A DNA stretch of 64,000 bases from Candidatus Nomurabacteria bacterium (GTDB taxonomy: Bacteria; Patescibacteriota; Patescibacteriia; HK-STAS-PATE-3), in the NCBI GenBank assembly GCA_023898465.1, contig CP060223.1, positions 224,001 through 288,000 of the forward strand. The letters are read 5' to 3'. The notes below the pieces were generated by a model that did no database searches, had not been told where the DNA came from, and worked only from the letters and a program-made list of their open reading frames with translations. A program made the translations under genes and the position numbers. Shown piece by piece: positions 3,752-58,548 of the stretch; position 1 is the first letter of the stretch, and every line of letters begins with the position of its first letter.

Positions 3752-3757
3752 TTATCT

Positions 3758-6034: not shown

Positions 6035-6113
6035 GTTAAGGAAATCTGAAATAAGAATATCGAAACACTAGACAATTTTGAAATTGGCTATTACTTCGAT
6101 TTTCGGAATACGT

Positions 6114-9035
<2,922 letters not shown>

Positions 9036-9076
9036 GCATAGCGACAGCTGGGACGAACTTTGCTAGACTAGCCTAT

Positions 9077-42972: not shown

Positions 42973-43391
42973 TACTTGACAACCCACTTCACAGGAGTAC
43001 ACTAAATGCACAATTGGTGGCGATCTCTGCCTGGCACTGACCAGGTTGTCCGGAGACGCCATGTTTTTGTATGCGCGTGTTCTTCCTCCTTGCCGCAGGG
43101 TGTAGCTCGGCTCCGCTCGCTACCCATTTCTCGGCATCGGTCTCTTTGCGATGATCGAAACGAAGAGCGTCTTTTTCTACTCTCCTGCAGGGGCGGTGCG
43201 GGAGCGCGGAATAGTTCCGGGCTTCATTTCCTCACATGAGGAAAGCGGCTTTGTTGCCGTTTTGCACCTTGAAATGCATGGAGGTTCGCCATGACTTGGC
43301 GTTTCCGACTCTTCCTGCTCATGGCCATCGCGTTGACCATGACACCCCTCGCTTTCATGACCGGCTGCCAGGAGCTGCCGACGGAGGGGGA
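42973..43391 (+). repeat. direct repeat copy A: promoter + 5' leader + signal-peptide cassette (partner at 46570..46894)
   Basis: Near-identical to copy B apart from one insertion of about 94 nt and scattered substitutions. It spans TTGACA through the first about 34 codons of the lipoprotein gene. Confidence 0.85.
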
Positions 43392-44028
43392 TTCACAGGA
43401 TCAAGTGGTTGAGAGTCCGGAAGCTCAACCCGGTCCAGCGATTCAGTCTACTGGGCCCGAATGGTATAATCAGGTCGTAAGTGAAGCAAAGTACACATTG
43501 TGCCAGCTTCGAAACGGCACATCGCATGAGGTCTATCAGGGTAAGGCTATGGGTGATTGGCCCTACCCACATCAAGGGGATTGTTGTAACGCCCTTGGTG
43601 TAGTCCGTCAATATATGTACGGTGGTGGCTCTCCAGGACCGCTTGGCGAATGGAATGGCTTCCAGCAAGGCGGTTGGTGCAAGTTCTTTGTCAACTTGGT
43701 GCTCTACCGCTCTAGCTATGGCTACCCGGGCGGACATTTGCTCTTGCCCACTTCTACGTATCGTTACAATAATCCACGCCCGGTTTCCGAAGCACAACCT
43801 GGATGGATCTTGCAGTCAGAAACACTACCTCATACTGCGATCGTAGTAGAACGACTAGGCGGTGGCTTGGATGTAATCGATTCAAACTGGATCGGAACTT
43901 ACAAGCGTCCGGACGGAAGTTATTACTACTCATATGCCATCGCAAGGCATGAAATCACAAATACGGAGTTGGATCGCTACGATTTCATGGCATATCGTCC
44001 GCATGAGGCGTGCGTGCTGCATAACTAG
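43291..44028 (+). CDS. lipoprotein with CHAP-like (cysteine, histidine-dependent amidohydrolase/peptidase) domain
   Basis: Signal peptide plus lipobox LAFMTG|C. QGDCCNALGVVRQY (Cys motif) and LPHTAIVVERLGGGLDVIDSNW (His motif) resemble the CHAP catalytic dyad. Confidence 0.55.
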   Translation: MTWRFRLFLLMAIALTMTPLAFMTGCQELPTEGDSQDQVVESPEAQPGPAIQSTGPEWYNQVVSEAKYTLCQLRNGTSHEVYQGKAMGDWPYPHQGDCCNALGVVRQYMYGGGSPGPLGEWNGFQQGGWCKFFVNLVLYRSSYGYPGGHLLLPTSTYRYNNPRPVSEAQPGWILQSETLPHTAIVVERLGGGLDVIDSNWIGTYKRPDGSYYYSYAIARHEITNTELDRYDFMAYRPHEACVLHN

Positions 44029-44101
44029 ATAGTGGGGGGTGCTGGAAAGTTTTTCAGTTCCCCCCACCTCCCACAAAGTCAATTATTTACTTCATAAGTA
44101 T

Positions 44102-44617
44102 ATGAAAAAAATCCAAATAGTCTTTCTCTTATTTTCAAGCATTGTTCTTGCGTCGGTGATTTTTTATTCCGGACATGCTATTTCATATAAAAATACAACC
44201 TACGGATATTCTTTTAGTACAATAAAAAAGTCTAATATTAAAGTTCTTGATCCAGCGCTTGTTCAAGTTTCAATTATAGGAGAAGAGGTTATTGAGGAGA
44301 GTCCAATAATAAACATATATGCTATTAAGTTGGAGCAAGATTCTTTGTCTGCAACCCAAGAACTTGAAACGTGGGTAGGGGAAGATCTTAATGGTTTCTC
44401 TGATATTAATATTCAGAGTACAACGACCGAAACAGAAAAAATAATTAACGTTACTTATACGGGAGGGGGGATGTCTGGAAGTATTAAATACGTCGGATTT
44501 TATGTTTTCAATCAGGAAGAAAAAACAATAATTAAGGTAGTAGCTTCTCAGTATAATGATAATATGGAATTGTTTGAGGCCTACAAAAAAATTCTTTCTT
44601 CCTTTCAGTTAATATAA
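44102..44617 (+). CDS. hypothetical membrane-anchored protein (AT-rich insert within the island)
   Basis: MKKIQIVFLLFSSIVLASVIFYSGH N-terminal anchor. 171 aa. Confidence 0.45.
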   Translation: MKKIQIVFLLFSSIVLASVIFYSGHAISYKNTTYGYSFSTIKKSNIKVLDPALVQVSIIGEEVIEESPIINIYAIKLEQDSLSATQELETWVGEDLNGFSDINIQSTTTETEKIINVTYTGGGMSGSIKYVGFYVFNQEEKTIIKVVASQYNDNMELFEAYKKILSSFQLI

Positions 44618-45255
44618 TGACCACCACTCATCGTCTCCTCATATTACTCATTGTCGTAGTTGCCGCAGGCTTTCTCTATCTTGGATTAAGATCAGATTCC
44701 TCCGATGTAACAACGACGAACAAAACAGTCAACAAAGATTTCCGTGAACTTGAAATGCTCAGTTCAGCTGGTCACAAGGTGTTTCAATCAGAGAATTATG
44801 ATTTCACCTATACGATTGATCATGGTGTTGACTGGAGCGTTAGCGAGGCTGCAGAGCCGACTTTGCTCACCACTTGGTTTTCTTTACCAAATCCAAATAG
44901 TGAAGAGGAAGAAAGAGATGATATTCCGAATGGGTTTAATACCTTTGAAAAAAATAGTTTTCGACTTGATGTATATCCTAACTCAGGTTCAGTAAGTCCA
45001 AATGGAGAAGCGGAGCTAAAAGATTGGTTAAAAAATGATCTTAATAGTGAGTATATTCCTGGAAGCTTTTTAACCTTATCCATTGCAAGAAACCGTTTAT
45101 TCAAAGTAGTTGATTTTCAGGGGATTGATGTGCGAGAGGCGCATTATTATCTATTTGGCTCTGCATTTGTATATGTCTTTTCAAGCGGTGATTTCACTGA
45201 GCAAGAAATGCGCGAGTTTATTAGCGGTTTTACCTACGAAAGAGCGCCTTTATAA
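44617..45255 (+). CDS. hypothetical membrane-anchored protein (AT-rich)
   Basis: Start overlaps the upstream stop (TAATG). N-terminal TM anchor. 212 aa. Confidence 0.45.
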   Translation: MTTTHRLLILLIVVVAAGFLYLGLRSDSSDVTTTNKTVNKDFRELEMLSSAGHKVFQSENYDFTYTIDHGVDWSVSEAAEPTLLTTWFSLPNPNSEEEERDDIPNGFNTFEKNSFRLDVYPNSGSVSPNGEAELKDWLKNDLNSEYIPGSFLTLSIARNRLFKVVDFQGIDVREAHYYLFGSAFVYVFSSGDFTEQEMREFISGFTYERAPL

Positions 45256-45462
45256 GCGCTTCATCTCATCTTTATTTCTTTACTTGACGCATCTCAGTAG
45301 TCCGAGCATAATCATTTTTGGGTAGTAACCCACGTTTTGATAAGCAGGAGAAGTACGGTAGATTCGATGGATGCGCCATGCGCACCCCATCTGCGTTGGA
45401 TTGTCACACTGAACCTCGGGTCAGGATAGCACCCTGACAAATCTGGAAAGAAAGGAGGCGTC

Positions 45463-46470
45463 ATGAACCGCCTGTTTGTCGTACTCGCGCTGATCACCAT
45501 CGGGGCTCTGGGTTTTGTTGGCTGCGGCGGTAAGGACGCCGCTACGAAGCCGGAAGAAATCCGCAGTCCAGATCAGATCGTGCAGTCTGAGATTGTCTAT
45601 ACCGTGAACCCAGACTACTCAGGGGTGAATGTTTCGTGGAAAACAAACATCCCGACAGTTGGAAGGGTGTACTATGGTAGGACTCCTCAACCAACTGACT
45701 ACGTCATCGAGGAGGTGAGCACTACTCAACATTTGTTGTGTGCACCTCGACTCAGGGGAGATGCGCTCTTCTACTTCCAAGTGCAATCATCCTTTTCCGA
45801 GGAAGTGATTAGCGCTCGGGAACCGAGCGAAGGCGATACACTTCGCACCCCACGATGGGTTGATTGGTCTCCACCTACCGTAAGATGGGTCGATCCTCGA
45901 GAAGGCGCAATAAAGGGCGGGACGATTGATCTCACTGTTTCGGCAAACGAATACGTTGTCAACGGGGTGGTAGAGGTGAAATTCTTTATCGATGGCAGGG
46001 TCATCGCTGTAGTGACTGAACCCGATGACGGTGATAAGATCTTCGTCGTGCATGACTTCAATACTACCCAGCTCACCGATGGCTTGCATAGCTTTCACGC
46101 GTTGGCAACAGATGTAAACGGTAACAGAGAGTCAAGGGGAATTACGGTCGACATCGACAACTCGAAGCCGGTCATCTATCGATGGGATGCTCCGAGAAAT
46201 CAGCGGGAGATCGGGAATTCTATCAATTTGCGAGTGGTGGCTCAGGACTTTCGTGGTGAACACGTCGATGATGTGTACATCACCCTCGATGGTCAACCAT
46301 TTGCGAGGCTTGAGGTGTGTGAACTGCGAGCTAGCGGCGTAGGAGATGTGTGGTGTAGAGACGTTGATACGTCGACGCTGTCACCCGGTCAGCACTACTT
46401 CGGTGCCGTTTCAGTAGATCATGCTGGCAACGAGTCAGATCCGGTCTACATCGGCGTCATCAAGCAGTAG
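45463..46470 (+). CDS. lipoprotein with Ig-like/FN3-like beta-sandwich repeats (G+C-rich)
   Basis: Lipobox LGFVG|C. Repeated beta-strand-rich segments (VNVSWKTN...VYYGRTPQ, IDLTVSANE..., FHALATDVNGN..., FGAVSVDHAGNES) typical of Big/FN3 folds. Confidence 0.5.
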   Translation: MNRLFVVLALITIGALGFVGCGGKDAATKPEEIRSPDQIVQSEIVYTVNPDYSGVNVSWKTNIPTVGRVYYGRTPQPTDYVIEEVSTTQHLLCAPRLRGDALFYFQVQSSFSEEVISAREPSEGDTLRTPRWVDWSPPTVRWVDPREGAIKGGTIDLTVSANEYVVNGVVEVKFFIDGRVIAVVTEPDDGDKIFVVHDFNTTQLTDGLHSFHALATDVNGNRESRGITVDIDNSKPVIYRWDAPRNQREIGNSINLRVVAQDFRGEHVDDVYITLDGQPFARLEVCELRASGVGDVWCRDVDTSTLSPGQHYFGAVSVDHAGNESDPVYIGVIKQ

Positions 46471-46569
46471 CCTTTCCAGTCCGTCAGGAATCCAACAGAG
46501 CCTGGGATCATCGATCTCGGGCTCTTCTCTTTTTGATACGCTCCAGAATGAAAAAGTGAAGTTTACTAT

Positions 46570-46894
46570 TACTTGACAACCCACTTCACAGGAGTACACT
46601 AAATGCACAATTGGTGGCGATCTCTGCCTGGCACTGACCAGGATGTCTGGAGACGCCATGTTTTTGTATAGGCGTATTCCACCCTCCCTTGCCGTGGCGT
46701 TGGGGAGCGCGGAATAGTTCCGGGCTTCATTTCCTCACATGAGGAAAGCGGCTTTGTTGCCGTTTTGCACTTTGAAATGCATGGAGGTTCGCCATGACTT
46801 GGCGTTTCCGACTCTTCCTGCTCATGGCCATCGCGTTGACCATGACACCCCTCGCTTTCATGACCGGCTGTCAGGAGCTGCCGACGGAGGGGGA
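46570..46894 (+). repeat. direct repeat copy B of the promoter/leader/signal-peptide cassette
   Basis: See copy A. This copy lacks the segment of about 94 nt. Confidence 0.85.
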
Positions 46895-47492
46895 GACTTC
46901 GGTGATCTCTGATGAGTTGCCGGATGCTTCACCCTCAGCTCAGTCAAGCCCGATGACTTGGCCCTCTTCGATCCAGGATTTCAAACTCCCTTATGATGGG
47001 ATCCGGGATGCATGCGGGGGTCAGATTTGGAAGGTTGTTTGCGGGTACGGATGTGGTTATCATCACAACACAAACTACATGGCCGCCGCGTACCATTCGA
47101 TTGATCTTGTACGGCAGGATGCGCCGACCACTCATAGCGCAGTACTCGCTCCGGCGCGTGGCATCGTTTCGTTTGTCGGATGGAGGAATGGGTACGGTTG
47201 GTGCGTGGAGATGGATCATCGAAACGGCTGGAAGTCGCTTGTGGCCCATCTCGAAACGGATCCTTGGGAATTCGTCCATACCTATGACGACCTGCGGCAG
47301 GGGACTTTCCTGGGCTATGCAGGGAACAGCGGAGCGAGTACGACACCCCACATTCACTTCTCGGTGTGGCGGAACAACGTCACTCATACGCTCGATGGCG
47401 TATCGTTGATCAACCCGCGTCTAAATGGGCGATACAATTCCGGCAATGATTATGTTGCGCCACCGACGGGAAATCCGAACCCGATTCCTTAA
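46794..47492 (+). CDS. lipoprotein peptidase M23 family (LytM/lysostaphin-like peptidoglycan endopeptidase)
   Basis: Identical signal peptide and lipobox to the 43291 gene. HSIDLV (HxxxD) and TPHIHFSVW (HxH) are M23 zinc ligand motifs. Confidence 0.7.
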   Translation: MTWRFRLFLLMAIALTMTPLAFMTGCQELPTEGETSVISDELPDASPSAQSSPMTWPSSIQDFKLPYDGIRDACGGQIWKVVCGYGCGYHHNTNYMAAAYHSIDLVRQDAPTTHSAVLAPARGIVSFVGWRNGYGWCVEMDHRNGWKSLVAHLETDPWEFVHTYDDLRQGTFLGYAGNSGASTTPHIHFSVWRNNVTHTLDGVSLINPRLNGRYNSGNDYVAPPTGNPNPIP

Positions 47493-47498
47493 CACGAT

Positions 47499-47535
47499 AG
47501 CGGAGAAGGTTTTTCATTAGAAAGCCTTCTCCGCT
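47499..47535. terminator. long perfect hairpin (agcggagaagg-...-ccttctccgct) at the 3' boundary of the GC-rich island
   Basis: 11-bp perfect inverted repeat with no strong T-run. It is a terminator-like or boundary element. Confidence 0.45.
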
Positions 47536-47668
47536 GTCTCTCCTCTCTATGAATAGTCATGTTGCTATTCTTTCTGTTAGCGATCACCATCCTTTTAGTT
47601 GATTTAGGATTAAAACTATAATTACGTTATTCTGGAGCATTTTCTCATAATATCGTAATCTTACTACT

Positions 47669-48682
47669 ATGAATCGTTTTTCTATCTTCATCGCAGTGTT
47701 CGTTCTTATCAGCGCAGTGGTTTATGCTTTCTTTTTTGCTACATTATTTGGGGAAAAGAAAGCTATTGAAGGAGTGCAGGGACCTGCTTTTATGTTTGCA
47801 ACCCTGCCTGACTCAGATGCATCTGCCGCGATAAGCATTTTTGAGATTCCTACAATGTCGAAGCGAAAGGCTGAAGACACATCTTTGCCAATGCATTTTC
47901 TTAAAAAACTAGGAGATCCGAGAGAGTATTTTGATCCCATACTTTCTTCAAGTGGTGCATATTTGGCTTTTAATCGTAATATTGGGGAGCCGAAACAGGA
48001 TAAGACAAATTTAGTAATACTTGCAGCTGACGGAAAAGAAAGGAGCGTGGAGAGCGGCTCTGCTGGAGATATAGGAATAGGAATGCTCACGCCCTTGCAG
48101 TGGAGTGCTGATGAAAAAACGCTCTACGCTTTTTATACACACGCAACTGAAGGTAATATCGTAGGCCTGGTGGCAATTGATGTGGCAACTTTAAGCCAAC
48201 AACGAATTGAAAAAATTGATGATCTACGTGTAAGTAACTACGTCTTTGATGAAGTCGGAAATACCTACGGTTTTGAACCGCACTATCGATTCCGCCCTGA
48301 AGACGAGGCTCAAACAACCTTTTATCGAATTTCTTTGACTAGTGGCGAAACAAAAAGCTTTACACTCCAGCAATCGAGTTTGGACGATCTCTTGACCGTA
48401 GATCCAAGCGGGAGATACCTCGTGTACGCAAACGGAGATGATTTTAATTCTCGTAACATTTGGATGTATGACATGGAAACCGGTGAGGAGCGCGCGTTGA
48501 CTGAAAATGCTGTTGTTAATGAAATTTTGCCCTGGAAAGATGGATATTTGGTATTTCTGGAGGAAAGTGTAAACACCCCCGCAGAAAAAACACTTGTATC
48601 ATACGATGTAAATTCTGGCATTCGCAAAGTTCTTTTAGAAAATGTTACAGGGACGTTCCGGCTTCTTGGTTGGTATCCCTAA
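47669..48682 (+). CDS. membrane-anchored PD40/TolB-like beta-propeller protein (paralog-type of 20627..21961)
   Basis: N-terminal TM helix. WSADEKTLYAF and DPSGRYLVYANGDD blades. Confidence 0.5.
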   Translation: MNRFSIFIAVFVLISAVVYAFFFATLFGEKKAIEGVQGPAFMFATLPDSDASAAISIFEIPTMSKRKAEDTSLPMHFLKKLGDPREYFDPILSSSGAYLAFNRNIGEPKQDKTNLVILAADGKERSVESGSAGDIGIGMLTPLQWSADEKTLYAFYTHATEGNIVGLVAIDVATLSQQRIEKIDDLRVSNYVFDEVGNTYGFEPHYRFRPEDEAQTTFYRISLTSGETKSFTLQQSSLDDLLTVDPSGRYLVYANGDDFNSRNIWMYDMETGEERALTENAVVNEILPWKDGYLVFLEESVNTPAEKTLVSYDVNSGIRKVLLENVTGTFRLLGWYP

Positions 48683-48715: not shown

Positions 48716-48746
48716 CTTGCCCCTCCCCTTAAAAAGTGGTATAGTC
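48716..48746 (+). promoter_or_regulatory. putative promoter with extended -10 (TTGCCC-17-TGgTATAGT) for the sensor-module array operon
   Basis: Hexamers and spacing seen directly in the sequence. It is followed by an untranslated leader of about 190 nt before the first paralog. Confidence 0.4.
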
Positions 48747-48940: not shown

Positions 48941-49600
48941 ATGTTAGGTTATCTTTTGCTCATTATATCGGTTGTAGAGTTTTTTATTGGCCTGTACCTT
49001 ATTTTTCGCTATGAAAAAAGCCAGGCAACAACATATTACGGTCTCTTTGCAATAAGTGTTGCGATCTATGTTGCCGCGAACGGTTTCGGATTTACCCGAG
49101 CTTCTGATAACGAGTTTATTTTTGAGCAACTTGCTTGGTTTGGCGGCTTACTTAGCGCCCCATTTATCCTTGGCTTCAGTTATAGCTTTCCTAGCCCTAA
49201 AAAATATCCCACTGAGCTATTTCCGTGGGTAATTTGGCCAGTAGTGTTATTTGGCGCAGGAATTTTTACTTCAAATATTTTCCTGGAGAAAACGTATATT
49301 TATTCCTTTGCCGAAGGCTACACTGCGCCAATCGGTGTCTTTTTCTGGTTCGCCATTGCAGTATTTGCGATGTATTGGATATGGGCAATACGAAACCTGC
49401 TGTATACGAGATTGCACACAAGCGGTTTTTATAGGAATTTTCTTACCATTGTGCTCATAGGGCTTTTTTCATCACTGCTTATTTCAGCAATTTTTGATAT
49501 TTACATTCCCTTAGTTTCAGTCACGCGCTACGGATATATTGGAGCATTATTCTCGTCTATTTGGCTGTTTACTACCGCGTATTTAATGGTGAGGAAGTAA
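48941..49600 (+). CDS. standalone 7TM membrane protein, paralog 1 (homologous to the HisKA_7TM-type N-terminal sensor module of the downstream histidine kinase)
   Basis: 219 aa, about 7 hydrophobic helices. Conserved blocks (N/R)xFLxIxLIGLxxSLL(I/V)S and GY(I/M)G(A/P)L(F/A)SSIWLF...YL(M/I)(V/L)RK are shared with the other paralogs and with HK residues about 190-230. Confidence 0.7.
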   Translation: MLGYLLLIISVVEFFIGLYLIFRYEKSQATTYYGLFAISVAIYVAANGFGFTRASDNEFIFEQLAWFGGLLSAPFILGFSYSFPSPKKYPTELFPWVIWPVVLFGAGIFTSNIFLEKTYIYSFAEGYTAPIGVFFWFAIAVFAMYWIWAIRNLLYTRLHTSGFYRNFLTIVLIGLFSSLLISAIFDIYIPLVSVTRYGYIGALFSSIWLFTTAYLMVRK

Positions 49601-49601
49601 G

Positions 49602-50261
49602 ATGATTGGATATATATTACTCATTATCTCAGTTGTTGAAGTAATACTCGGTTTTTATTTGATTTTTCGATATGTAAAAAGTCCAGCAACTATATATTAC
49701 GGCCTATTCGCGCTAAGTGTAGCACTCTATGTAGGTGCAAACGGGTATGGTTTTAGTCCGTTTTCAGAAAATGATATATGGCTGGAAATAATTGCCTGGA
49801 TTGGCGGGACCTTTACCGCTCCTTTTATTCTTGGCTTCAGTTACTCATTCCCTTATCCACGTAAGTCCAATAAGGAAATACTGTCTTTAGTTCTTAGTCC
49901 ACTCGTTTTTTTCTTCGTCGTAATACTTTTTTCTAATACTTTTGTAGATCATAATAGTGTTATCAGCTTTGATGAAGGATTTCAAAGACCTGTCGGGGAG
50001 TTACACTGGTTTGTATTATCAGTATTCTTTTTCTATTGGGTTTGGTCTTTTATTGAACTAGTAAAGAGTCGAAAAAAATCCGACGGCTTTAATAAGAATT
50101 TTCTTCTTATTTTAATTATAGGCTTAGTTTTTTCTTTGTTGGTTTCGGTATTTACTAACATCATTCATCCACTTGTCGATGTTTCAAAGTTAGGTTATAT
50201 GGGCCCCTTAGCCTCTTCAATCTGGCTATTTATTACTGGGTACTTGATATTGAGGAAGTAA
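49602..50261 (+). CDS. standalone 7TM sensor-module paralog 2
   Basis: 219 aa. Starts 1 nt after the paralog 1 stop, with an RBS aggaag. About 60% identical to paralog 1 by eye. Confidence 0.7.
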   Translation: MIGYILLIISVVEVILGFYLIFRYVKSPATIYYGLFALSVALYVGANGYGFSPFSENDIWLEIIAWIGGTFTAPFILGFSYSFPYPRKSNKEILSLVLSPLVFFFVVILFSNTFVDHNSVISFDEGFQRPVGELHWFVLSVFFFYWVWSFIELVKSRKKSDGFNKNFLLILIIGLVFSLLVSVFTNIIHPLVDVSKLGYMGPLASSIWLFITGYLILRK

Positions 50262-50932
50262 TGAACACCTTTCATTTAGTTTTACTTTTTACACTTTTCT
50301 TTATTCACGCGACTCTCGCAATATGGATGTTGCGTAGATATGTGCAGACGCTATCCATTCGTTATTACTCAGGCTTTTTATTTGGACTAGCACTTATTGC
50401 ACTATTAAATGGTTTATTGCTGTTATTTGGCGGTCAGGAGAGTCAAACAGTCCTTCATAAGATCGGCTTTATCTCAGGCACCTTCACTTTTGTGATGTTC
50501 TTTATGTTTAGTAAGTACTTTCCAATTTCTACTGCAAGACCAAACTCCCGCGACATTCTTTTTTGGGTAATTCCGATTACATTTTTTATTCCATTCATAC
50601 TTTTTAATCAGCAGTTTATCCAGTCTGTGATTATAGAAAATGGAATAAGTAAGCCTACATTTGGAGTCTGGTATACACCATTTATGTTAGTTTTGGCCAC
50701 CTTTGTTCTGGGGGCTATCTATAATCTCATACAGAAATATAAAATAACCACTGAACTTGAAATTAGGAAGAACATTAGAGACATTACGGCAGTATTTTTC
50801 GTATCAGGACTCCTTGGCTTTTTGTTGGACGTTGTGTTGCCAAGGTTTAATGTTTATACGGCACATTACTTTGCCATTGAATCTTCACTTTTTGTTGCGC
50901 TAACTACTGCAATTATTATTGCAAAGAAGTAA
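50261..50932 (+). CDS. standalone 7TM sensor-module paralog 3 (divergent)
   Basis: 223 aa. TAATG stop/start overlap with paralog 2. Confidence 0.65.
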   Translation: MNTFHLVLLFTLFFIHATLAIWMLRRYVQTLSIRYYSGFLFGLALIALLNGLLLLFGGQESQTVLHKIGFISGTFTFVMFFMFSKYFPISTARPNSRDILFWVIPITFFIPFILFNQQFIQSVIIENGISKPTFGVWYTPFMLVLATFVLGAIYNLIQKYKITTELEIRKNIRDITAVFFVSGLLGFLLDVVLPRFNVYTAHYFAIESSLFVALTTAIIIAKK

Positions 50933-50933
50933 G

Positions 50934-51605
50934 ATGAAAGAGTTTCTCATCATTGCAAATTATCTGGTTGGAATAGGGGAGTTGATGCTCGCTGGATATT
51001 TTTGGAAAACAAACAGCGGCAGCGCAATTCGGAAGGTGATGGTGTTGTTGGCGTTTTCGACTGGTATGTGGGTCATTTTTACCGGAACCTTTACCTACCG
51101 CTGGATTTTGCTTGATTACTTTGATCTCGGCATATCATTTGTATATTTCTTTGGAATTTTGTTCCTTACCGCCTTACTTCATTTAGTAATTCTCTTTCCT
51201 CACAAGATTTTCCCGTTTGATAGGCTACATACAGTTTTGTTGTATATTCCAACACTCATATTAGGTTTTGCCGCTTTTACTCCAGCGATAATTAAAGAAA
51301 ATATCACTCCGTCGAGCGGGTATACCACAAGTTATCCCGGACCAGCACATTGGATGTTTAATAGCTATCTTTTTCTCATGTATGCAATGGTGATAATCCT
51401 ACTCATTGTTAAGATCAAGCGTTTTGATGGATTTAGCAGAGATAACGCAAAAACTTTGCTTTGGGGTATTATTTTAGGCGGCCTACCCATCGTTTTCTTA
51501 GATTTGGTTTTGACAACTTTGGGCATCTACCCAAATGCTGCCGTTGCCAGCCTTTTCACAGTTGTCTGGCTTGGGTTTACTACTTACATAATTGTACGGA
51601 AATGA
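50934..51605 (+). CDS. standalone 7TM sensor-module paralog 4 (divergent)
   Basis: ATG 50934 lies 1 nt after the paralog 3 stop. The track ORF at 50919 uses an upstream TTG. C-terminus ...YIIVRK. Confidence 0.65.
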   Translation: MKEFLIIANYLVGIGELMLAGYFWKTNSGSAIRKVMVLLAFSTGMWVIFTGTFTYRWILLDYFDLGISFVYFFGILFLTALLHLVILFPHKIFPFDRLHTVLLYIPTLILGFAAFTPAIIKENITPSSGYTTSYPGPAHWMFNSYLFLMYAMVIILLIVKIKRFDGFSRDNAKTLLWGIILGGLPIVFLDLVLTTLGIYPNAAVASLFTVVWLGFTTYIIVRK

Positions 51606-52288
51606 ACGGAGAAATAGTATTTTTTGATTTAATTTTACTTAGCGTTGTTGGATTATTAGAATTAGCCTTTGGGATTTATTTAATAGTCCGTTATGTGAGG
51701 ACAAGTTCGATAGTATTTTTTGCACTTTTCGTTTTCTTTCTTTCTTTGTGGGTGCTTACAAATGCGGCTGCTTTCGTAATACCAATACATAATGTCTTCT
51801 TTGATATTGATTCAAAGTTGAGTTTTGTTTTTGCAATATTACTTTTTCCAGCGCTATACTTATATGTAATTAATTTTCCCATCCCTACAATATTAATAAA
51901 TTGGCGTTTAATACTTTTTGTGTTTACTGCGCCAATACTTCTTAGTACAATGATTTTAGGGTCGGGAACGGTTGTATTTGGATTTGATAAATTGATAGAG
52001 AATCAGCCAACTATATTTGGAGAAGCTTTTTGGGCCTATTCTTTTTATATGTTGTTCATGTATGCAATTATTTTATTTGAATTAATAAGGCAGATTAATA
52101 AGTCCAAGGGTTCTCACAGATGGTATGCACAAATTTTATTTTTTGCTGTTTTCATTTCTGGCGCAATAGGGCTATTATTTAATCTTGTTCTGCCTTCGAT
52201 GTTCGATATTAGAATTGCTTATTGGATAGCCCCATCTAGTTCAATTATTTGGCTTGCTCTTGTTTGGTGGGCGACGCAGAGGAAATAA
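51602..52288 (+). CDS. standalone 7TM sensor-module paralog 5
   Basis: ATGA start/stop overlap with paralog 4. Conserved YLIVRYVRTS and C-terminal ...WWATQRK. Confidence 0.65.
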   Translation: MNGEIVFFDLILLSVVGLLELAFGIYLIVRYVRTSSIVFFALFVFFLSLWVLTNAAAFVIPIHNVFFDIDSKLSFVFAILLFPALYLYVINFPIPTILINWRLILFVFTAPILLSTMILGSGTVVFGFDKLIENQPTIFGEAFWAYSFYMLFMYAIILFELIRQINKSKGSHRWYAQILFFAVFISGAIGLLFNLVLPSMFDIRIAYWIAPSSSIIWLALVWWATQRK

Positions 52289-52290
52289 TT

Positions 52291-52959
52291 ATGGATTATG
52301 GTGTATACTTATTATTAGTTATTGCGGGCCTAGAACTTTGGTTGACAATATACATATTTACTCGCTACCAAAGAACAAAAGCTATTTTTTTCTTTGGACT
52401 CTTTACTGCTTGTGTGACTGGATGGGTGCTAACTAATTCTATTCCGCTTCTTTTTTCCTATTCAAGTTGGCAATCTGATTTTTTGCAACGCCTCTCGTTT
52501 TCTTTTGCTGCATTTATTTTTCCTTTTCTTTATTATTATATTCTTTTACATCCATTTCCAAGCATTGATATCAACAAGCGATTCATATTATTCACATCCC
52601 TCCCGGCCTTCTTTGTTTCTATTGCCACTCTCTTTGATAAAAACTTTGTTATAGGATTCTATGATACCTCAGTAAGGGCAACAATATACGGCGACTCTTT
52701 TTGGATGTATGCGGTAGTTATGTTGCTATTTGCAATTCTTATTCCTGTGGAAATAATTTTAAAAAGAAGAAGACTGGATGGATATTATCGCTACCAATTC
52801 AAATTATTATTCAGCGCCTATTTGTTTTCAGCGGCAGTAGGATTACTAATTAATTTAATATTGCCATATTTTTTCGACTTAAAAATTAACTATTGGCTTG
52901 GGCCCGCGTCATCGATTATTTGGGTGAGTATGGTTTGGTGGGTTATTAATAGAAGGTAA
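52291..52959 (+). CDS. standalone 7TM sensor-module paralog 6
   Basis: Starts 2 nt after the paralog 5 stop. C-terminal WLGPASSIIWVSMVWWVINRR matches the HK GFGPLSTLFLLFFISYAIIRHR block. Confidence 0.65.
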   Translation: MDYGVYLLLVIAGLELWLTIYIFTRYQRTKAIFFFGLFTACVTGWVLTNSIPLLFSYSSWQSDFLQRLSFSFAAFIFPFLYYYILLHPFPSIDINKRFILFTSLPAFFVSIATLFDKNFVIGFYDTSVRATIYGDSFWMYAVVMLLFAILIPVEIILKRRRLDGYYRYQFKLLFSAYLFSAAVGLLINLILPYFFDLKINYWLGPASSIIWVSMVWWVINRR

Positions 52960-52981
52960 TGTTTAATTGCGATTTTCAAAA

Positions 52982-53641
52982 ATGACAATAGGACATGTAG
53001 TTGAAGAATTTAAAAGTCGGTATATTAAAAGACAACTAGATCATAATTTTATTGTTTTAGAGACTCAAAATAACAACCAACTAAATTTATCATATAGATT
53101 AAGATACGAAGTATATTGTCTAGAATGTAAATATTTAGACGTGAATAATTATCCCAATAGGTCTGAAAAGGATGAGTATGATGATTGTTCAATACATTTC
53201 ATCGCAATAAATAAAAAGACAAAAAATGTTGTTGGCACAATTCGACTTATTAAACGCACTAATAGGAATTTGCCAATAGAGCATGATTTTGGAATTTCTC
53301 TGAATGGATCAATTAGTTCTAAAAAAGTTGTGGAGATTTCTAGACTAGCGGTTGATAAAAAATTTAGGAAGTCGAGTTTAAAGCATCCAAGTATTATGTT
53401 AGGTTTATTAAAAGCATGCTATAGATACGCCGAAGAAAATGGAATTGCAATGTTTGTAGCGGCAATAGATCAAAATGTATATAATATGTTAAAAAAGTTT
53501 CGTTTTTCATTTAATTTATTAGGGGAACCAAAACATTATATGGGTTCAATCTCAGTACCCGTGTTAATTGATATCGAAAAAGAATCGCAGTGGTTAAAAA
53601 TAGTAAATCCTGGACTATGGACATTTCTTTCAAGCAATTAG
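52982..53641 (+). CDS. GNAT-fold N-acyltransferase resembling LuxI/FeeM-type autoinducer / N-acyl amino acid synthases
   Basis: LRYEVYCLECKYL...EKDEYDDCSIHFIAINKKTKNVVGTIRLI...LPIEHDFGISL...VVEISRLAVDKKFRK follows the R.EVF...E.D.YD...(Y/H)(L/F).A......G..RL.P......E..F...E.SR.AV pattern of the Autoind_synth/Acetyltransf_5 families. Confidence 0.5.
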   Translation: MTIGHVVEEFKSRYIKRQLDHNFIVLETQNNNQLNLSYRLRYEVYCLECKYLDVNNYPNRSEKDEYDDCSIHFIAINKKTKNVVGTIRLIKRTNRNLPIEHDFGISLNGSISSKKVVEISRLAVDKKFRKSSLKHPSIMLGLLKACYRYAEENGIAMFVAAIDQNVYNMLKKFRFSFNLLGEPKHYMGSISVPVLIDIEKESQWLKIVNPGLWTFLSSN

Positions 53642-54276
53642 CTCATAAAATTGTATTATTCTATTTAAGACGGGCTAGCCACAAAAAATACCTAACATTT
53701 AGCTTTAGCGATCTTATTATACTCTGTCCCCCAAACGTGTTCCCGCCTAATTCGTTTACCACTGACCTAATGGCTAAGTGGCTAGTAAACGAAGAGATGG
53801 AAGGTAAACAGGTTTTAGAGATGGGTTGTGGAAGTGGATACATTTCGATTATTGCCGCACGAAAAGGGGCAAAAGTAATTGCAAGCGACATCAGCCCTAT
53901 CGCGGTTGATGCCGCAAAAATCAATACCATAATAAATAAGATAAAAAATGTCGAATGTTATTGCTCGGACTTATTTTCTAACTTAGAAGGAAAGTTTGAT
54001 TTAATTCTCTTCAACGCACCTTTTTTTCATGGAGAACCCACTTCTTTATTAGATAACAATTGGATGAGTAAGGATGGGGAGGTGGTCAGTAAATTTTTTA
54101 AAGACGCAAGAGAATATATTAATCCAATGGGGAAGGTAGTTATTACTAGTTCGACTCTAGTTAATCAAGATGCTCTGAAAATATTAATTAAAGAAAGCGG
54201 ATTTAATATTGAAAACGTGAAAACAAAAAATATTATTATTGAAAAATTTTTCTTGTATGAATGTAGAGCTTTTTAA
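53617..54276 (+). CDS. class I SAM-dependent methyltransferase, small-domain (HemK/Mtq2-like)
   Basis: The VFPPNSFTTDL entry motif resembles the Mtq2/HemK N-terminal motif. GxGxG is VLEMGCGSGYISI, followed by an acidic loop ASDIS and DLILFNAPFF (NPP(Y/F)-like). The start overlaps the GNAT gene by 25 nt. Confidence 0.7.
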   Translation: MDISFKQLAHKIVLFYLRRASHKKYLTFSFSDLIILCPPNVFPPNSFTTDLMAKWLVNEEMEGKQVLEMGCGSGYISIIAARKGAKVIASDISPIAVDAAKINTIINKIKNVECYCSDLFSNLEGKFDLILFNAPFFHGEPTSLLDNNWMSKDGEVVSKFFKDAREYINPMGKVVITSSTLVNQDALKILIKESGFNIENVKTKNIIIEKFFLYECRAF

Positions 54277-55021
54277 TAGAAATCAACCATTTATAACTAA
54301 AAAAGAACAAAAAATTCTCACAAAACAGAAAGTTTGTTTTATTGGATGTGGTCTTGCAAGTCAAGCCGCACTCCTTATTGCCAGGACAGGTATTGGAAAA
54401 ATAGTACTTTGTGATGGAGACAAGGTCGAGTTGAGTAATCTTAACAGGCAAGCATTTGACATTGGTGATATTGGAGAAAACAAAGCAGAAAGCTTAATGA
54501 GAAAGATATTAAGCATCAATTCAAATATTGAAGTGGAGCAGTATCCGGTTTTTTTAAAAAAATCGATTATTTCAAATGTAATAAAAGATTCAGATATTGT
54601 AGTGAGCACAGTTGATGCGGGTCCTTTATATTTTGAAATTCAGGAATATATTAATAAAAAAGGCATTATGGGAATATTCCCCATGAATATTGCCTTTGGA
54701 TCACTCGTATTCGTATCAAAAAATGGAAAGGGTGATTTTAAATCGTTATTTGGGGAGAAATTACCTGAAAATAATTCTGAATTTTTTTATCAACTTTACA
54801 ATAAACTTAAACAAAATGTACCAAGCTATTTATCTCCTCATATTGAAATCTTATTAAGTGGATTTAAAACAAACAGTCCAATTCCACAGCTAGGATTAAC
54901 GACTTTACTTACCGCATCTTTGATTACTGAGATAATACTGGCTGGGAACAGGGCTGAGCAATTATTGTTAACTCCAAGATTCTATTATTTTGATATTCGT
55001 GAATTCGTTCGAAATGGATAA
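54257..55021 (+). CDS. ThiF/MoeB/E1-like adenylyltransferase
   Basis: Rossmann VCFIGCGLASQ followed by DGDKVELSNLNRQ, the ThiF signature. The core is 254 aa with no rhodanese or peptide-clamp extension. Confidence 0.75.
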   Translation: MNVELFNRNQPFITKKEQKILTKQKVCFIGCGLASQAALLIARTGIGKIVLCDGDKVELSNLNRQAFDIGDIGENKAESLMRKILSINSNIEVEQYPVFLKKSIISNVIKDSDIVVSTVDAGPLYFEIQEYINKKGIMGIFPMNIAFGSLVFVSKNGKGDFKSLFGEKLPENNSEFFYQLYNKLKQNVPSYLSPHIEILLSGFKTNSPIPQLGLTTLLTASLITEIILAGNRAEQLLLTPRFYYFDIREFVRNG

Positions 55022-57785
55022 ATTGCTAATCCCACAAAATTTAGCACTTATTATATTGCTCTTCGGATATTTAAGTCTGATAATTCTTCTTTTGAGACGC
55101 GAGAACACAAGTAGTAGATTATTTGGTGCTACCGTTATTACTCTCTCTCTTTGGATATTATCAATTTTACTTTTAAATATCAGCTCCTCAAAAGAAGAAA
55201 TTTTATTCTTTTCGCGATCGTCATTTATCGGGCCAATTATTCTCATACCAACATTCCTTCTTTTTTCTTGGTATTTTCCGAAAAAAACTATACATCTAAG
55301 GAAAAGTATTATTATTGTCGTTTCTTTAACGGCATGCTTCTTTTTAATTGCGACGTTTACGCCGTATGTAATTCAAGATGTCACAATAAAAGTAGGTGAA
55401 GGAGTCAGTCTAACCTATCAACTTGGAACACTATATTTTTTCCAATTTATTTTTTTAGCATTCTCATTACTTTATTCTTTTTTTATTCTTTATAAAAAAT
55501 ATAAAAAATCAAAAGGCCTAGAAAAATTACAAATTAGATATCTTTTTCTTGGCACCGTTATTACTGCAGTATTGACCTTGAGTACTAACGTAATTTTACC
55601 AATTTTTAATTTTTCATCTCTTGCTGGATTTGGCCCTCTTAGTACTCTATTTCTCTTATTTTTTATTTCATATGCCATCATCCGCCACCGCCTCCTCGAC
55701 ATCCGTCTTGTTATCACGCGTTCCTTAATTTATTTTTTCCTTATCCTGTTCGTCGCAGGATCATTTACTGGAATTACCTTACTCGCAAAGTTATTATTTG
55801 AAGAATTTGTTGGTGAAATAACCGCTACAATACTTGTTTCTCTCATCATCGTTATTGGTTTCGAGCCATTGAAGCGATGGGTCTCTCGTTCTACTGACTC
55901 GGTTTTTTATAAGGCAAAAATTGACTACGCTGATGTGTTGCGGGAAATCAGCGAAATTATTAACCGTGAAATTGTCCTGGATCCGCTCGTCACCTCCATC
56001 AGCGCCACGCTTGAGAGTAGGCTCAAGCTCAAGCACGCGGGCATTGCATTGAAAAGCGCCAAGGGGGATTTTGTTGAATACATAAACCACGATCACTTTG
56101 ATCCCAAAACCTTTTCCAGCCGATCCGGTATGATCGGATTCTTACGTTTCACATCTCGTATCACCATTTTAGAATCGCTCGAGCGCAAAATTCAGGACAC
56201 GAGCGAAGGGGACGAATTAAAAGAGTTGAAGCGATCGCGCGAGGAAATGGAAACGAACCACATTGCCTTAGCTGCTCCGATTGTGGCGCAAGGCAAATTC
56301 AACGCAGTCCTCATCCTGGGGCCGAAACTTTCCGGTGATAGCTTCTCGACCGAAGAGTTGAAGATGATTGAAACGTTGACTCCGCAGATCGGATCAGCGA
56401 TTGAGAAATCCATGCTCTTCGAAGAGGTGAAGAACTTCTCCAGTCAATTAAAGGTGAAAGTTGATGAGGCGACAAAGGAGTTGAAAGAGCGCAATCGTTT
56501 CCTTGGCGCTTTGCAGGATATCACGAGCACCATTACGCACTCTCTTGATTACAAAAAAGTAGGACAGGACATTGTGGACGGAGTAGCCAAGAAGCTCGGT
56601 TACATCGGTGCCGTGCTCCTGCTCTATGATCCAAAGACTGGCCAGTCATGGGCTGAGGCAATTACGCAAACGCCGGTTACTCGCGCGGCAATGAAATTAC
56701 TGCCCAAGCCGGTGAACGAATACCATGGGCACGTGGATGAGAATTCCATGACCGACCAAGTTATTTTGACTGGTGAAATGCGCGAAAGTGATTCACTAGC
56801 TGAATTCTTAGCACCGGCCGTGCCTAAAGCTTTTTGTTTCGCCATGCAGAAGTTGATTCGCGCAAAGTATATTGTGGCAGTGCCAATCTATGCCGAGGGT
56901 GAAATTCTCGGTGCCTTGGTTTTTGTGCTCGGGAAGAAGAAAGAGGAGATCAGTAGTCAGGAGCGGGCTATGATGATCGCTTTAGGTGACCAGGCCGGAA
57001 TCGTGCTGCACAATATTAAACTCTTTGATCGCATCCAGGATACGAATAAGCAGTTGGAGCAGGCGAATGAACACTTGAAGCAGCTTGATCAAGCTAAGTC
57101 GGAATTCGTCTCCATTGCCTCGCACCAATTACGCACGCCGATGACTGGCATTATGGGCTATCTTTCCATGATGGTGCAGGGGGATTTCGGTAAAATGGAG
57201 CCGGAGCACACCAAACTGCTGACTGAATTGTTGAGTGAGAGTCAGCGCATGATTCGTCTCATCAACCTCTTCTTGAACGTCTCAAAGATTGAGTCAGGTA
57301 AGATGACGATTAACAAGCAGCCGACGCAGATTAAGGATCTCATTGACCAACAGATTAAGGATCAGAAAAAGCCAGCCGAGGATAAAGGATTGGTGCTGAA
57401 AGTGGAAGTTGATAAAGAGCTGCCGATAATTGAAGCTGACGGTGATAAGCTCATGAACGTGGTGCAGAACCTGATTGATAACGCTATCAAATATACAGAG
57501 CGGGGAAGCGTGACTGTTCGCGCCTTTCAGACCGATGGCCATATCCAGGTAGAAATTCAAGACACTGGCGTTGGTATTAAGCGCGAAGATGTGCATGAAC
57601 TCTTTGGTAAGTTTGTGCGCGGGTCTGGCATTGCGCAGATCAATCCTGATGGCTCCGGTCTCGGACTCTTTATTGCCAAGTCAATTGTGGAAATGCACGG
57701 CGGTAAGATTTGGGTAGAATCAGAAGGTGAAGGGAAAGGTACTAAATTCGCATTCACGATACCAATTACACAGCCGAAAAAATGA
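54990..57785 (+). CDS. sensor histidine kinase: N-terminal 7TM (HisKA_7TM-like) sensor, GAF domains, HisKA, HATPase_c
   Basis: N-terminal about 230 aa are hydrophobic and homologous to the six upstream paralogs. H-box SIASHQLRTPMTGIMGY. N/G1/G2 boxes NLIDNAIKYT, DTGVGI and GSGLGL. ATG 55014 would give an ATGGATAA start/stop overlap with the E1-like gene. Confidence 0.85.
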   Translation: MIFVNSFEMDKLLIPQNLALIILLFGYLSLIILLLRRENTSSRLFGATVITLSLWILSILLLNISSSKEEILFFSRSSFIGPIILIPTFLLFSWYFPKKTIHLRKSIIIVVSLTACFFLIATFTPYVIQDVTIKVGEGVSLTYQLGTLYFFQFIFLAFSLLYSFFILYKKYKKSKGLEKLQIRYLFLGTVITAVLTLSTNVILPIFNFSSLAGFGPLSTLFLLFFISYAIIRHRLLDIRLVITRSLIYFFLILFVAGSFTGITLLAKLLFEEFVGEITATILVSLIIVIGFEPLKRWVSRSTDSVFYKAKIDYADVLREISEIINREIVLDPLVTSISATLESRLKLKHAGIALKSAKGDFVEYINHDHFDPKTFSSRSGMIGFLRFTSRITILESLERKIQDTSEGDELKELKRSREEMETNHIALAAPIVAQGKFNAVLILGPKLSGDSFSTEELKMIETLTPQIGSAIEKSMLFEEVKNFSSQLKVKVDEATKELKERNRFLGALQDITSTITHSLDYKKVGQDIVDGVAKKLGYIGAVLLLYDPKTGQSWAEAITQTPVTRAAMKLLPKPVNEYHGHVDENSMTDQVILTGEMRESDSLAEFLAPAVPKAFCFAMQKLIRAKYIVAVPIYAEGEILGALVFVLGKKKEEISSQERAMMIALGDQAGIVLHNIKLFDRIQDTNKQLEQANEHLKQLDQAKSEFVSIASHQLRTPMTGIMGYLSMMVQGDFGKMEPEHTKLLTELLSESQRMIRLINLFLNVSKIESGKMTINKQPTQIKDLIDQQIKDQKKPAEDKGLVLKVEVDKELPIIEADGDKLMNVVQNLIDNAIKYTERGSVTVRAFQTDGHIQVEIQDTGVGIKREDVHELFGKFVRGSGIAQINPDGSGLGLFIAKSIVEMHGGKIWVESEGEGKGTKFAFTIPITQPKK

Positions 57786-58216
57786 AACAGGTAAGGGGGA
57801 AACAACCAAAACGCATCCTACTTGTCGAGGACGAGCCGCTCTTAGCAACGATGTATATGTTGGCGTTGCAGCAACGAGTAAAGGCTGAGGTGTACGGGGC
57901 TAAGACACGCGAAGAAGCGGAGCGCATTATTGAGCGTGTGAAGCCGGATTTAGTGCTGCTTGATCTCATGATTCCCTCGATTACCATCCAAGACACGGAG
58001 CAGGATTTTCATCATCCAGTAGGGCTGCAATTCTTAGCCCAAATTCGGAAGAGTCCAAAGACGCGTTCAATCAAGGTAATGATTCTCTCCAACCTTGATG
58101 CGGATGAGCAACGCAAGCGGGCCATTGATTTAGGTGCCGAGGATTACCTATTAAAAGCCAGTCTGCAGCCGCACGCGATTGTGGAAAAGGTAAAGCATAG
58201 TTTAGGGATAAAATAA
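57782..58216 (+). CDS. single-domain response regulator (receiver only)
   Basis: RILLVEDEPLL...DLVLLDLMIP...K receiver motifs. ATGA overlap with the HK stop. No output domain. Confidence 0.85.
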   Translation: MKQVRGKQPKRILLVEDEPLLATMYMLALQQRVKAEVYGAKTREEAERIIERVKPDLVLLDLMIPSITIQDTEQDFHHPVGLQFLAQIRKSPKTRSIKVMILSNLDADEQRKRAIDLGAEDYLLKASLQPHAIVEKVKHSLGIK

Positions 58217-58333: not shown

Positions 58334-58531
58334 ATGTCGATTGCGTTTACTCCCACTGAGCTTATTCTCCTCGGAGGATTTCTCGTCTGGATCATGGCCC
58401 AAATCTATGCTCCAATGAAAGGTCGCCGCAAAGCTGTCAGCTTCGGCGCCATCGAGATTGTCTTCCTGCTCGTGGGTCTCGCGGTATTGCTCCTCGGAGC
58501 AATCACCCTTGCACAGAATCCTGCCTTCTAG
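58334..58531 (+). CDS. putative small two-TM membrane protein
   Basis: A 65-aa ORF from ATG 58334 with two hydrophobic helices. A TTGACA-16-TATACT promoter lies at about 58231-58262 and a terminator overlaps the 3' end. Confidence 0.3.
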   Translation: MSIAFTPTELILLGGFLVWIMAQIYAPMKGRRKAVSFGAIEIVFLLVGLAVLLLGAITLAQNPAF

Positions 58532-58548
58532 GCGGGATTCTTTTTTTA
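58510..58548 (+). terminator. intrinsic terminator (gaatcctgcc...ggcgggattc + TTTTTTT)
   Basis: GC-rich inverted repeat followed by a 7-T run. Confidence 0.5.

Follow-up and report, generated by a model that had tools for sequence, protein, structure and literature searches.

The sensor domain of a histidine kinase is usually examined as part of the kinase that carries it, and the accessory membrane proteins known for such kinases are unrelated to the kinase's own sensor. UhpC/UhpB, DcuB/DcuS, BceAB/BceS and SaeQ/SaeS represent membrane co-sensors of histidine kinases. In systems of the UhpC/UhpB type, a separate transmitter-less polytopic membrane protein informs a polytopic kinase encoded at the same locus. 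An arrangement that may be similar in this respect is present in a 64-kb stretch of DNA (hereafter the window) from Candidatus Nomurabacteria, where six consecutive genes, designated W1 to W6, each encode a single seven-transmembrane-helix (7TM) module related to the sensor of a histidine kinase encoded downstream. However, the co-sensors of the UhpC/UhpB type are transporters or unrelated small proteins, are single-copy, and are not paralogues of the kinase sensor. In the window, it is the sensor module that has become a protein of its own and has multiplied and diverged, and it is kept in an operon with the kinase across a clade of bacteria.

The homologous module in the family databases is HisKA_7TM (PF16927), to which 7TMR-DISM_7TM (PF07695) is related; HisKA_7TM is found also on the operon's own kinase. 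HisKA_7TM is defined as the N-terminal region of kinases, and the literature found to use this name deals with fused archaeal kinases only. Here, the module is a complete transmitter-less protein in 3–6 tandem copies, and W3 to W6 have diverged too far to be covered by the Pfam model. No description of such arrays was found in the literature on standalone 7TM modules, on signalling in Patescibacteria or on links to N-acyl synthases, as had been supposed when the array was put forward as an undescribed system in an earlier reading of this DNA (the original prediction). The parts are of known kinds, namely a sensor domain, a two-component system and an N-acyl synthase, and it is the architecture, with free, multiplied sensor modules in a conserved operon, that is new.

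LuxM/LuxN and AinS/AinR form acyl-homoserine-lactone circuits. These resemble the present locus in combining an acyl-amide signal synthase with a kinase whose ligand site is in a multi-helix membrane domain, and differ from it in that the receptor domain belongs to another family and that the product and ligand are known, whereas here they are predicted only. To our knowledge, no acyl-amide circuit includes extra transmitter-less copies of the receptor.

The original prediction described W1 to W6 as consecutive, coupled genes of 219–228 amino acids (aa) that code for a 7TM module only, and the coordinates of the open reading frames (ORFs) and their junctions agree with this description (Table 1). 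W1 and W2 are separated by 1 nt, as are W3 and W4, and W5 and W6 by 2 nt, whereas W2 overlaps W3 in TAATG and W4 overlaps W5 in ATGA. Each of the six has an ATG and an intact full-length frame. A Shine-Dalgarno (SD)-like motif is clear for W1, W2, W3 and W6 and weaker for W4 and W5, and the SD sites, typically GAGGAAG, fall in the last codons of the preceding paralogue gene. The ORFs terminate 2–3 basic residues past the last transmembrane (TM) helix, TM7, at the module boundary. A second assembly from this organism agrees with the window at 100% identity over 14.8 kb, and the W1 protein is identical to NCBI H6760_01290 from a metagenome-assembled genome of Candidatus Nomurabacteria. SRR12358676, from the source sample, also contains an identical contig. 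These data show that the six genes are real, translationally coupled paralogues, each encoding one HisKA_7TM module without an output domain.

The codons for the C-terminal Arg/Lys-Lys residues of the paralogues (AGG AAG TAA or AAG AAG TAA; positions 49571–49605, 50232–50266 and 50903–50937) serve at the same time as the SD of the next gene. Because of this double use, the basic C-terminal end and the translational coupling share the same bases.

The sequence motifs quoted in the original prediction were found in W1/W2 and in the kinase. In a comparison with PF16927 (gathering score 28.6 bits), W1 (Table 1) and W2 (41.1 bits) pass the threshold, whereas W4 (22.4 bits) and W5 (15.1 bits) remain below it and W3 and W6 are not matched. 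The kinase scores 59.2 bits over residues 20–238, and W2 is also above the threshold for PF07695. Hidden Markov models (HMMs) of the family were built from database relatives only, leaving out the subfamily under test, and E values were calculated for a search space of a million sequences. These leave-one-group-out HMMs match all six paralogues and the kinase N-terminus with 110–142 bits and E values of 1e-30 to 1e-39 (W1, 1.1e-30; W3, 1.6e-36 with 131.5 bits; W4, 1.1e-34; W5, 5.4e-39; W6, 1.1e-39). An HMM of the standalone family built without the kinase matches the kinase N-terminus with 108 bits (E 9.5e-33). W1 to W6 are thus homologues that the Pfam model reaches only in part.

None of 357 shuffled or reversed decoys was matched, even with filters off; hence, the similarity is not due to hydrophobic composition, and a compositional artefact is ruled out by the leave-one-group-out HMMs together with these controls. 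The family profile has exactly seven matches in the window, which are the six paralogues and the kinase. W1 and W2 are 53% identical and W5 and W6 39%, the remaining pairs share ~15–28% identity, and the array paralogues are 14–23% identical to the kinase module at the protein level. BLASTP of W6 against W2 gave an E value of 9e-13. The homology of the six paralogues and the kinase module is therefore solid, and the claim that the paralogues are transmitter-less copies of the HisKA_7TM module of the kinase is borne out by Pfam, by the family HMMs and by the position of their ends at the module boundary. The feature that defines HisKA_7TM, a location N-terminal to a transmitter in the same protein, is missing from W1 to W6. 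No transporter or enzyme family matched the modules, nor did a defence family in the PADLOC comparison of W1, W3, W4 and W6, and the claim that the similarity is real, and not a matter of hydrophobic bias or of an unrelated transporter or enzyme family, holds.

Hydropathy analysis revealed seven hydrophobic helices in each of the six paralogues, in line with the 7TM character proposed earlier, and the positive-inside distribution of Lys and Arg indicates an N-out/C-in orientation. An AlphaFold2 model of W2, based on a 60-sequence alignment, has seven helices, a predicted local distance difference test score (pLDDT) of 93.9 and a predicted template modelling score (pTM) of 0.91. As judged by this model, W2 is a seven-helix bundle like that of G-protein-coupled receptors (GPCRs), and not a transporter or enzyme. 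Foldseek supports the GPCR-like bundle weakly, with template modelling scores of 0.5–0.64, and the family profile found nothing among PDB sequences at E <= 1. The predicted bundle has the topology of eukaryotic GPCRs, including the class C heterodimers such as GABA-B. However, identity in the structural alignments is 7–16%, and to the eukaryotic GPCR bundles it is 7–13%; at such identity, GPCR homology cannot be claimed. G proteins are lacking, and the likeness may be one that seven-helix bundles share in general.

The most conserved positions of the family include the proline of an FP motif after TM3 and the glycine of an SDGxxR-like motif in the TM5–6 loop, both cytoplasmic and both common to free and kinase-borne modules. 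Such shared cytoplasmic-loop motifs fit a common cytoplasmic or lateral partner. A membrane-embedded Glu in TM1 (residue ~13 of W2) is present in ~71% of the aligned family modules, nearly all of them standalone proteins; the position is occupied by His in W3 and by Tyr in the window kinase, and the residue could be involved in ligand binding or helix packing.

The array opens an operon of ~9.6 kb and 11–12 genes, in which the six 7TM genes are followed by genes for a synthase, a methyltransferase, a ThiF-family protein, the kinase and a receiver-only regulator (Table 1). The kinase had been placed 2 kb downstream of the array, and the spacing is correct, but the three enzyme genes that lie in between were overlooked. 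It had also been stated that every paralogue stops where the kinase continues into its cytoplasmic coiled-coil/GAF region. The paralogues do end at the module boundary; the kinase, however, has nine TM helices, the two extra ones (at about residues 240–290) being located between TM7 and the GAF domains. With HisKA (58.2 bits) and HATPase_c (101 bits) domains in the kinase and a receiver protein encoded next to it, the two form a two-component system. The kinase start is more likely the ATG at 55014, giving 923 aa, than the TTG listed in Table 1.

Table 1. Features of the array and its operon in the window
Feature	Coordinates	Strand	Details
Candidate sigma-70-like promoter, TTGCCC-17-TATAGT with TG	48717–48745	+	consensus match only; in the 258-nt gap 5' of W1
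W1, standalone HisKA_7TM module, subfamily I	48941–49600	+	219 aa; PF16927 34.6 bits; 7 TM helices
W2, standalone HisKA_7TM module, subfamily I	49602–50261	+	219 aa
W3, standalone 7TM module, subfamily III	50261–50932	+	223 aa; 7 TM helices; no Pfam match
W4, standalone 7TM module, subfamily II	50934–51605	+	223 aa from ATG; 228 aa from alternative TTG 50919
W5, standalone 7TM module, subfamily IV	51602–52288	+	228 aa; ATGA overlap with W4
W6, standalone 7TM module, subfamily IV	52291–52959	+	222 aa; no Pfam match
N-acyl amino-acid synthase, FeeM/autoinducer-synthase-like GNAT	52967–53641	+	TIGR03694, FeeM, Acetyltransf_5, Autoind_synth
HemK2/MTQ2-like class I S-adenosylmethionine (SAM) methyltransferase	53617–54276	+	TIGR00537 108.8 bits (cut-off 87); Pfam MTS 70.9; alternative GTG 53590
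ThiF-family (E1-like) adenylyltransferase	54257–55021	+	Pfam ThiF 102 bits; alternative TTG 54239
Sensor histidine kinase, HisKA_7TM + 2 TM + GAF + GAF + HisKA + HATPase_c	54990–57785	+	931 aa from TTG 54990
Receiver-only response regulator	57782–58216	+	144 aa; receiver-domain matches only, no output domain; overlaps kinase stop
Intrinsic-terminator-like hairpin	58515–58541	+	12-bp stem and T-run; strongest hairpin in the region

Family scans covered 16 kb around the array. The synthase matches TIGR03694 with 139.6 bits (cut-off 111.95), FeeM with 58 (27), Acetyltransf_5 with 55.5 (22.4) and Autoind_synth with 47.3 bits; its matches to the L-ornithine N-acyltransferase OlsB are weak (25–36 bits against a cut-off of 320–350). 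The synthase thus falls in the PF13444/TIGR03694 family of N-acyl amide synthases. Enzymes annotated with TIGR03694 gave long-chain N-acyl amides when expressed in E. coli, and production of long-chain N-acyl amino acids was demonstrated for a Neisseria homologue (PMC9762135).

A profile of the six paralogues was searched against 1.84 billion representative sequences and matched 3972 proteins at E <= 1e-3 and 1186 at E <= 1e-10. Among the best 150 relatives, 110 are 200–250 aa long and match over their full length. The standalone relatives of ~220 aa are a large unnamed family; one member is labelled by NCBI as 'histidine kinase N-terminal 7TM domain-containing protein', and the named members come from Candidatus Nomurabacteria (the source of the window), Candidatus Komeilibacteria and 'Patescibacteria group'. 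Standalone relatives exist for all four subfamilies of the window, I (W1/W2), II (W4), III (W3) and IV (W5/W6), and W3 is the closest window match for fourteen of them. The subfamilies are kept as full-length ORFs across genomes, with 35–47% identity, and W4 orthologues of 35–61% identity were found in L001, L003, L004, L008 and L009.

Nine distinct loci were compared, the window being L002, with L007/L008 and L009/L010 each counted once. The six copies of the window, followed as described above, compare with three at L001 (then synthase, kinase and a regulator that is a receiver-domain ORF), five at L003 (then synthase, ThiF and a kinase interrupted by the contig end), three at L004 (then methyltransferase, synthase, kinase and a regulator of ~145 aa), three at L011 (then synthase, ThiF, kinase and a regulator of ~145 aa), three at L006 (then two unknown genes and a kinase start), three at L012 (then a small ORF, methyltransferase and a kinase start), at least three at L007/L008, where the contig ends, and four at L009/L010 (then a 7TM-GAF protein without kinase domains). 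No single-copy locus was found among the nine; arrays comprise 3–6 copies. A 7TM-GAF kinase is encoded within three genes of the array at seven of the eight loci with a visible downstream region, and a FeeM-like synthase at five loci (the window, L001, L003, L004 and L011). The order of subfamilies in the arrays is I,I,III,II,IV,IV; I,II,II; I,I,II,II,II; I,IV,IV; III,II,I; or I,I,I,II, subfamily I being nearly always present. The array was taken for a single case in the original prediction; these data show a recurrent operon type of Patescibacteria with 3–6 standalone modules from at least four conserved subfamilies.

Kinases with several modules in one chain were also found. All 18 matches longer than 800 aa (including P0006, P0021, P0034 and P0047) have 2–4 tandem modules, and seven of the 18 were scanned with Pfam and are kinases with PAS and/or GAF, HisKA and HATPase_c domains. 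P0047 has 7+1+7+2 TM helices, the extra linker helix between the modules restoring the topology. The proximal module of these proteins is of the kinase type, and the distal ones are of the kinase type or ambiguous. An AlphaFold model of the N-terminus of a natural two-module kinase (12 sequences; pLDDT 79, pTM 0.72) is of moderate confidence. Like the array operons, these kinases have several family modules per transmitter, with topology kept by the linker helix, but they differ from the array in being a single chain, in having duplicates of the kinase type as the extra modules and in occurring in contexts without a synthase. They show that several modules of the family can serve one transmitter, which is no proof that free modules do so.

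The operon is also divided by its base composition. The G+C content at third codon positions (GC3) has a trough of 0.17–0.33 over the later paralogues, the synthase, methyltransferase and ThiF genes and the 7TM module of the kinase (window 49400–55850; also L001, L003, L004 and L011). GC3 of the first paralogue is 0.40–0.68 at four of the five loci; L011, with 0.35, lacks such a high start. The cytoplasmic part of the kinase and the regulator have a GC3 of 0.54–0.63 at the four loci where that part is visible. In the window kinase, GC3 is 0.27 before codon 284 (at about 55840) and 0.56 after it. Maximum-likelihood change-points lie 0–81 codons past the end of TM7 (likelihood-ratio chi-square 38–172), and that of L011 is located exactly at the RHQLM motif which ends the module. 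Between loci, the 7TM parts of the kinases are 31–35% identical and the cytoplasmic parts 50–57%. Recent horizontal transfer is unlikely as the cause of the low-GC block, as five deeply diverged loci, the majority with some upstream genes in common, have this pattern; given such persistence and the partly shared neighbourhoods, a single recent transfer does not explain the GC3 step.

At the pherotype loci comQXPA and agrBDCA, one unit comprises the genes for signal synthesis together with the membrane-sensor half of the kinase, and another the kinase core and regulator. The polymorphism of comQXP has been described (PMC4408185). The GC3 step at the 7TM boundary and the unequal identity of the two kinase halves between loci resemble what is found at pherotype loci, as if the synthase were evolving jointly with the sensor half of its kinase. 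However, the signal predicted here is not a peptide, and the likeness is based on comparison between loci and not on alleles within a species.

The operon link to a 7TM kinase is conserved and related kinases fuse 2–4 modules; therefore, a co-receptor role is plausible. Having no transmitter of their own, the standalone modules could thus be accessory receptor subunits that act through the 7TM module of the kinase in a lipid-amide sensing circuit, a proposal that is preferred to the alternatives below but put forward tentatively, as a real possibility. In such a circuit, the synthase and the variable tailoring enzymes would make a lipid-like N-acyl amide, and the 7TM bundles would sense this amphiphile, or related lipids from neighbouring or host cells, inside the membrane. 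The standalone modules would pack laterally against the 7TM module of the kinase and do in trans what fused modules do in cis. They would widen or tune what the single kinase responds to, and the proposal leaves open whether their effect is activating or inhibitory. The kinase would then phosphorylate the single-domain regulator, which would act by protein-protein contact and not by DNA binding.

Several points weigh against this proposal. The synthase is absent from L006 and L012, and the array of L009 is followed by a 480-aa protein (3101–4543) with a 7TM module and a GAF-like region but without HisKA/HATPase. The fused kinases sit in other genomic contexts without a synthase, and because their distal modules are not clearly of subfamilies I–IV, the argument from fusion holds at the family level only. 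Many Patescibacteria are thought to lack fatty-acid synthesis, which makes the acyl donor unclear. Finally, the mix-and-match composition of the arrays looks more like a diversifying receptor repertoire than like fixed subunits. A system of this latter kind, considered rather doubtful in its full form, would consist of GPCR-fold 7TM subunits subject to birth and death, each recognising its own membrane-soluble ligand (N-acyl amides made by the cell itself and/or lipids of the host), that feed one 7TM kinase by intramembrane heteromerisation. The synthase and the 7TM sensor of the kinase, and less sharply the array, would then form a pherotype-like specificity cassette separate from the kinase core, which would explain the conserved GC3 step.

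The modules lack an output domain and share an operon with an N-acyl synthase at five loci, which would also fit a role in lipid handling, the 7TM bundles flipping or exporting the N-acyl amide, sequestering it or protecting the producer membrane independently of a merely co-regulated kinase. Some GPCR-fold proteins scramble lipids, the modelled fold of the modules is of this type, and multiple diverged copies could match multiple lipid species. Yet arrays occur also where no synthase is visible (L006, L012 and L009), the kinase itself has this module as its sensor, the neighbour that varies least is a 7TM-bearing kinase or GAF protein, no transporter family was matched, and the fused multi-module kinases argue for a sensory role; lipid handling is thus considered unlikely. 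If the synthase were OlsB-like and made structural aminolipids, the kinase and modules might serve membrane homeostasis by sensing the state of the bilayer and adjusting lipid modification. The weak OlsB matches of the synthases and a sensing domain that is wholly intramembrane, with short loops, would agree with this. It is given a low probability, as OlsB scores far under its cut-off and the enzyme matches TIGR03694 and autoinducer synthases better, variable tailoring genes (methyltransferase, ThiF and unknown proteins) are more in keeping with a specialised metabolite than with a bulk lipid, and the need for 3–6 diverged sensor copies is left unexplained.

The structural and contextual evidence for accessory subunits applies equally to their inhibitory version, in which the modules are dominant-negative decoys that set a threshold by forming inactive heteromers with the kinase or by soaking up ligand, and a decoy would be expected to be truncated in just this way, exactly at the end of the module. 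However, fixed co-transcription with the kinase leaves no way to regulate decoy dosage, four subfamilies conserved over deep divergence suggest distinct positive functions, and the extra modules of the fused kinases belong to a working receptor, so that decoys appear quite improbable. The original prediction also offered a silent-cassette library, from which programmed recombination would donate sensor modules to the 5' end of the kinase gene. The array and the kinase gene are co-oriented and 2 kb apart, and the sharp GC3 step at the kinase 7TM boundary in five loci shows that the module is a separate evolutionary or compositional unit. Nevertheless, DNA repeats between the array and the kinase 5' end are at chance level only (16–28 nt; 20–28 nt at 70–80%), protein identity is just 14–23%, each copy has its own start codon and mostly a clear SD, the subfamilies persist across genomes, inverted repeats and recombinase sites were not seen, and the second assembly is identical. 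The pilS/pilE and vls systems are characterised by DNA homology to the expression site and by cassettes without translation signals, neither of which is found here. The cassette library is thus largely refuted and highly improbable.

The array, ~4 kb of paralogues, is a large investment for a clade with genomes of roughly 1 Mb. If the modules signal through the kinase, they would represent a new way to expand the input range of a two-component system and a tractable model for communication between bacterial 7TM proteins. The association with an N-acyl amide synthase suggests that Patescibacteria, about whose signalling and host recognition little is known, communicate by means of lipids. A receptor repertoire, if true, would be a prokaryotic counterpart of multi-receptor families and give a first handle on partner sensing by these episymbionts. 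The conserved GC3 discontinuity is a separate puzzle that concerns the evolution of the sensor and transmitter halves of one gene.

The remaining signals around the operon are as follows. Promoter-like sites in the region are not enriched over shuffles, which makes the candidate 5' of W1 weak evidence. A membrane ORF of 65–91 aa (58256/58334–58531) precedes the terminator-like hairpin, no hairpin of comparable strength was seen between the operon genes, and the hairpin is the probable operon end. The start of the methyltransferase was taken from the gene call in the identical locus L002. The ThiF-family protein has no NCBIfam equivalog above its cut-off. Membership in the PrsK/PEP-CTERM system, raised by the TIGR03694 match, is contradicted by the scores of the kinase and regulator: the kinase N-terminus (330 aa) matches only LIC10906_fam (24.8 bits), TIGR02916 (PrsK) does not appear in the top 25 of the 92 matches to the full kinase, and the regulator scores 28.8 bits against TIGR02915 (PrsR; cut-off 502.6) and lacks a sigma-54 activator domain. 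Anti-phage defence was likewise rejected, as PADLOC gave no matches for W1, W3, W4 and W6, and the ThiF and methyltransferase proteins have only generic E1 and methyltransferase domain matches.

The genes 5' of the array are partly common to most loci and include those for secreted hydrolase-like proteins (CHAP, M23); the partial sharing indicates that the locus is probably inherited vertically within the clade. The upstream regions (window 43291–48682; L001 5565–9800; L003 184–2762; L004 7735–9804; L011 1–5758) encode many secreted proteins that match families weakly or not at all, together with cell-wall hydrolase domains (M23, CHAP/NlpC-P60 and Big_7). These secreted proteins could be targets of the two-component system or tools of host contact. 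In the window, a 245-aa secreted protein and an M23 peptidase begin with an identical 33-residue lipoprotein-type signal peptide (MTWRFRLFLLMAIALTMTPLAFMTGCQELPTEG; 43291–43391 and 46794–46894). A 54-nt stretch of the shared signal peptide has 98% DNA identity, and the remainders of the two proteins are unrelated. Directly 5' of the array of L011, positions 5841–9041 encode two radical SAM/SPASM enzymes together with a methyltransferase and an ORF of 73 aa; such a set resembles a peptide-modification cluster, from which a further signal could come. The split kinase with a separate 7TM gene initially seen at L011 is a gene-caller artefact, the ORF being continuous from 12860.

L001 (CAYGGC010000002.1) is labelled 'uncultured Gammaproteobacteria bacterium'; its array-synthase-kinase locus and upstream genes resemble the Patescibacteria type, and the taxonomic label may be wrong. 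The 470-aa protein P0099 (HisKA_7TM and GAF_3) has the same architecture as the 480-aa protein of L009, and the two suggest an output without need of a kinase. The genes for the four-module kinases P0006 and P0021 (loci L013 and L014) lie in a conserved housekeeping context with NusA, trigger factor, ClpP, RNase Y and HU, and at L014 the four-module kinase is followed by a further 7TM kinase, with a single module, and by a response regulator.

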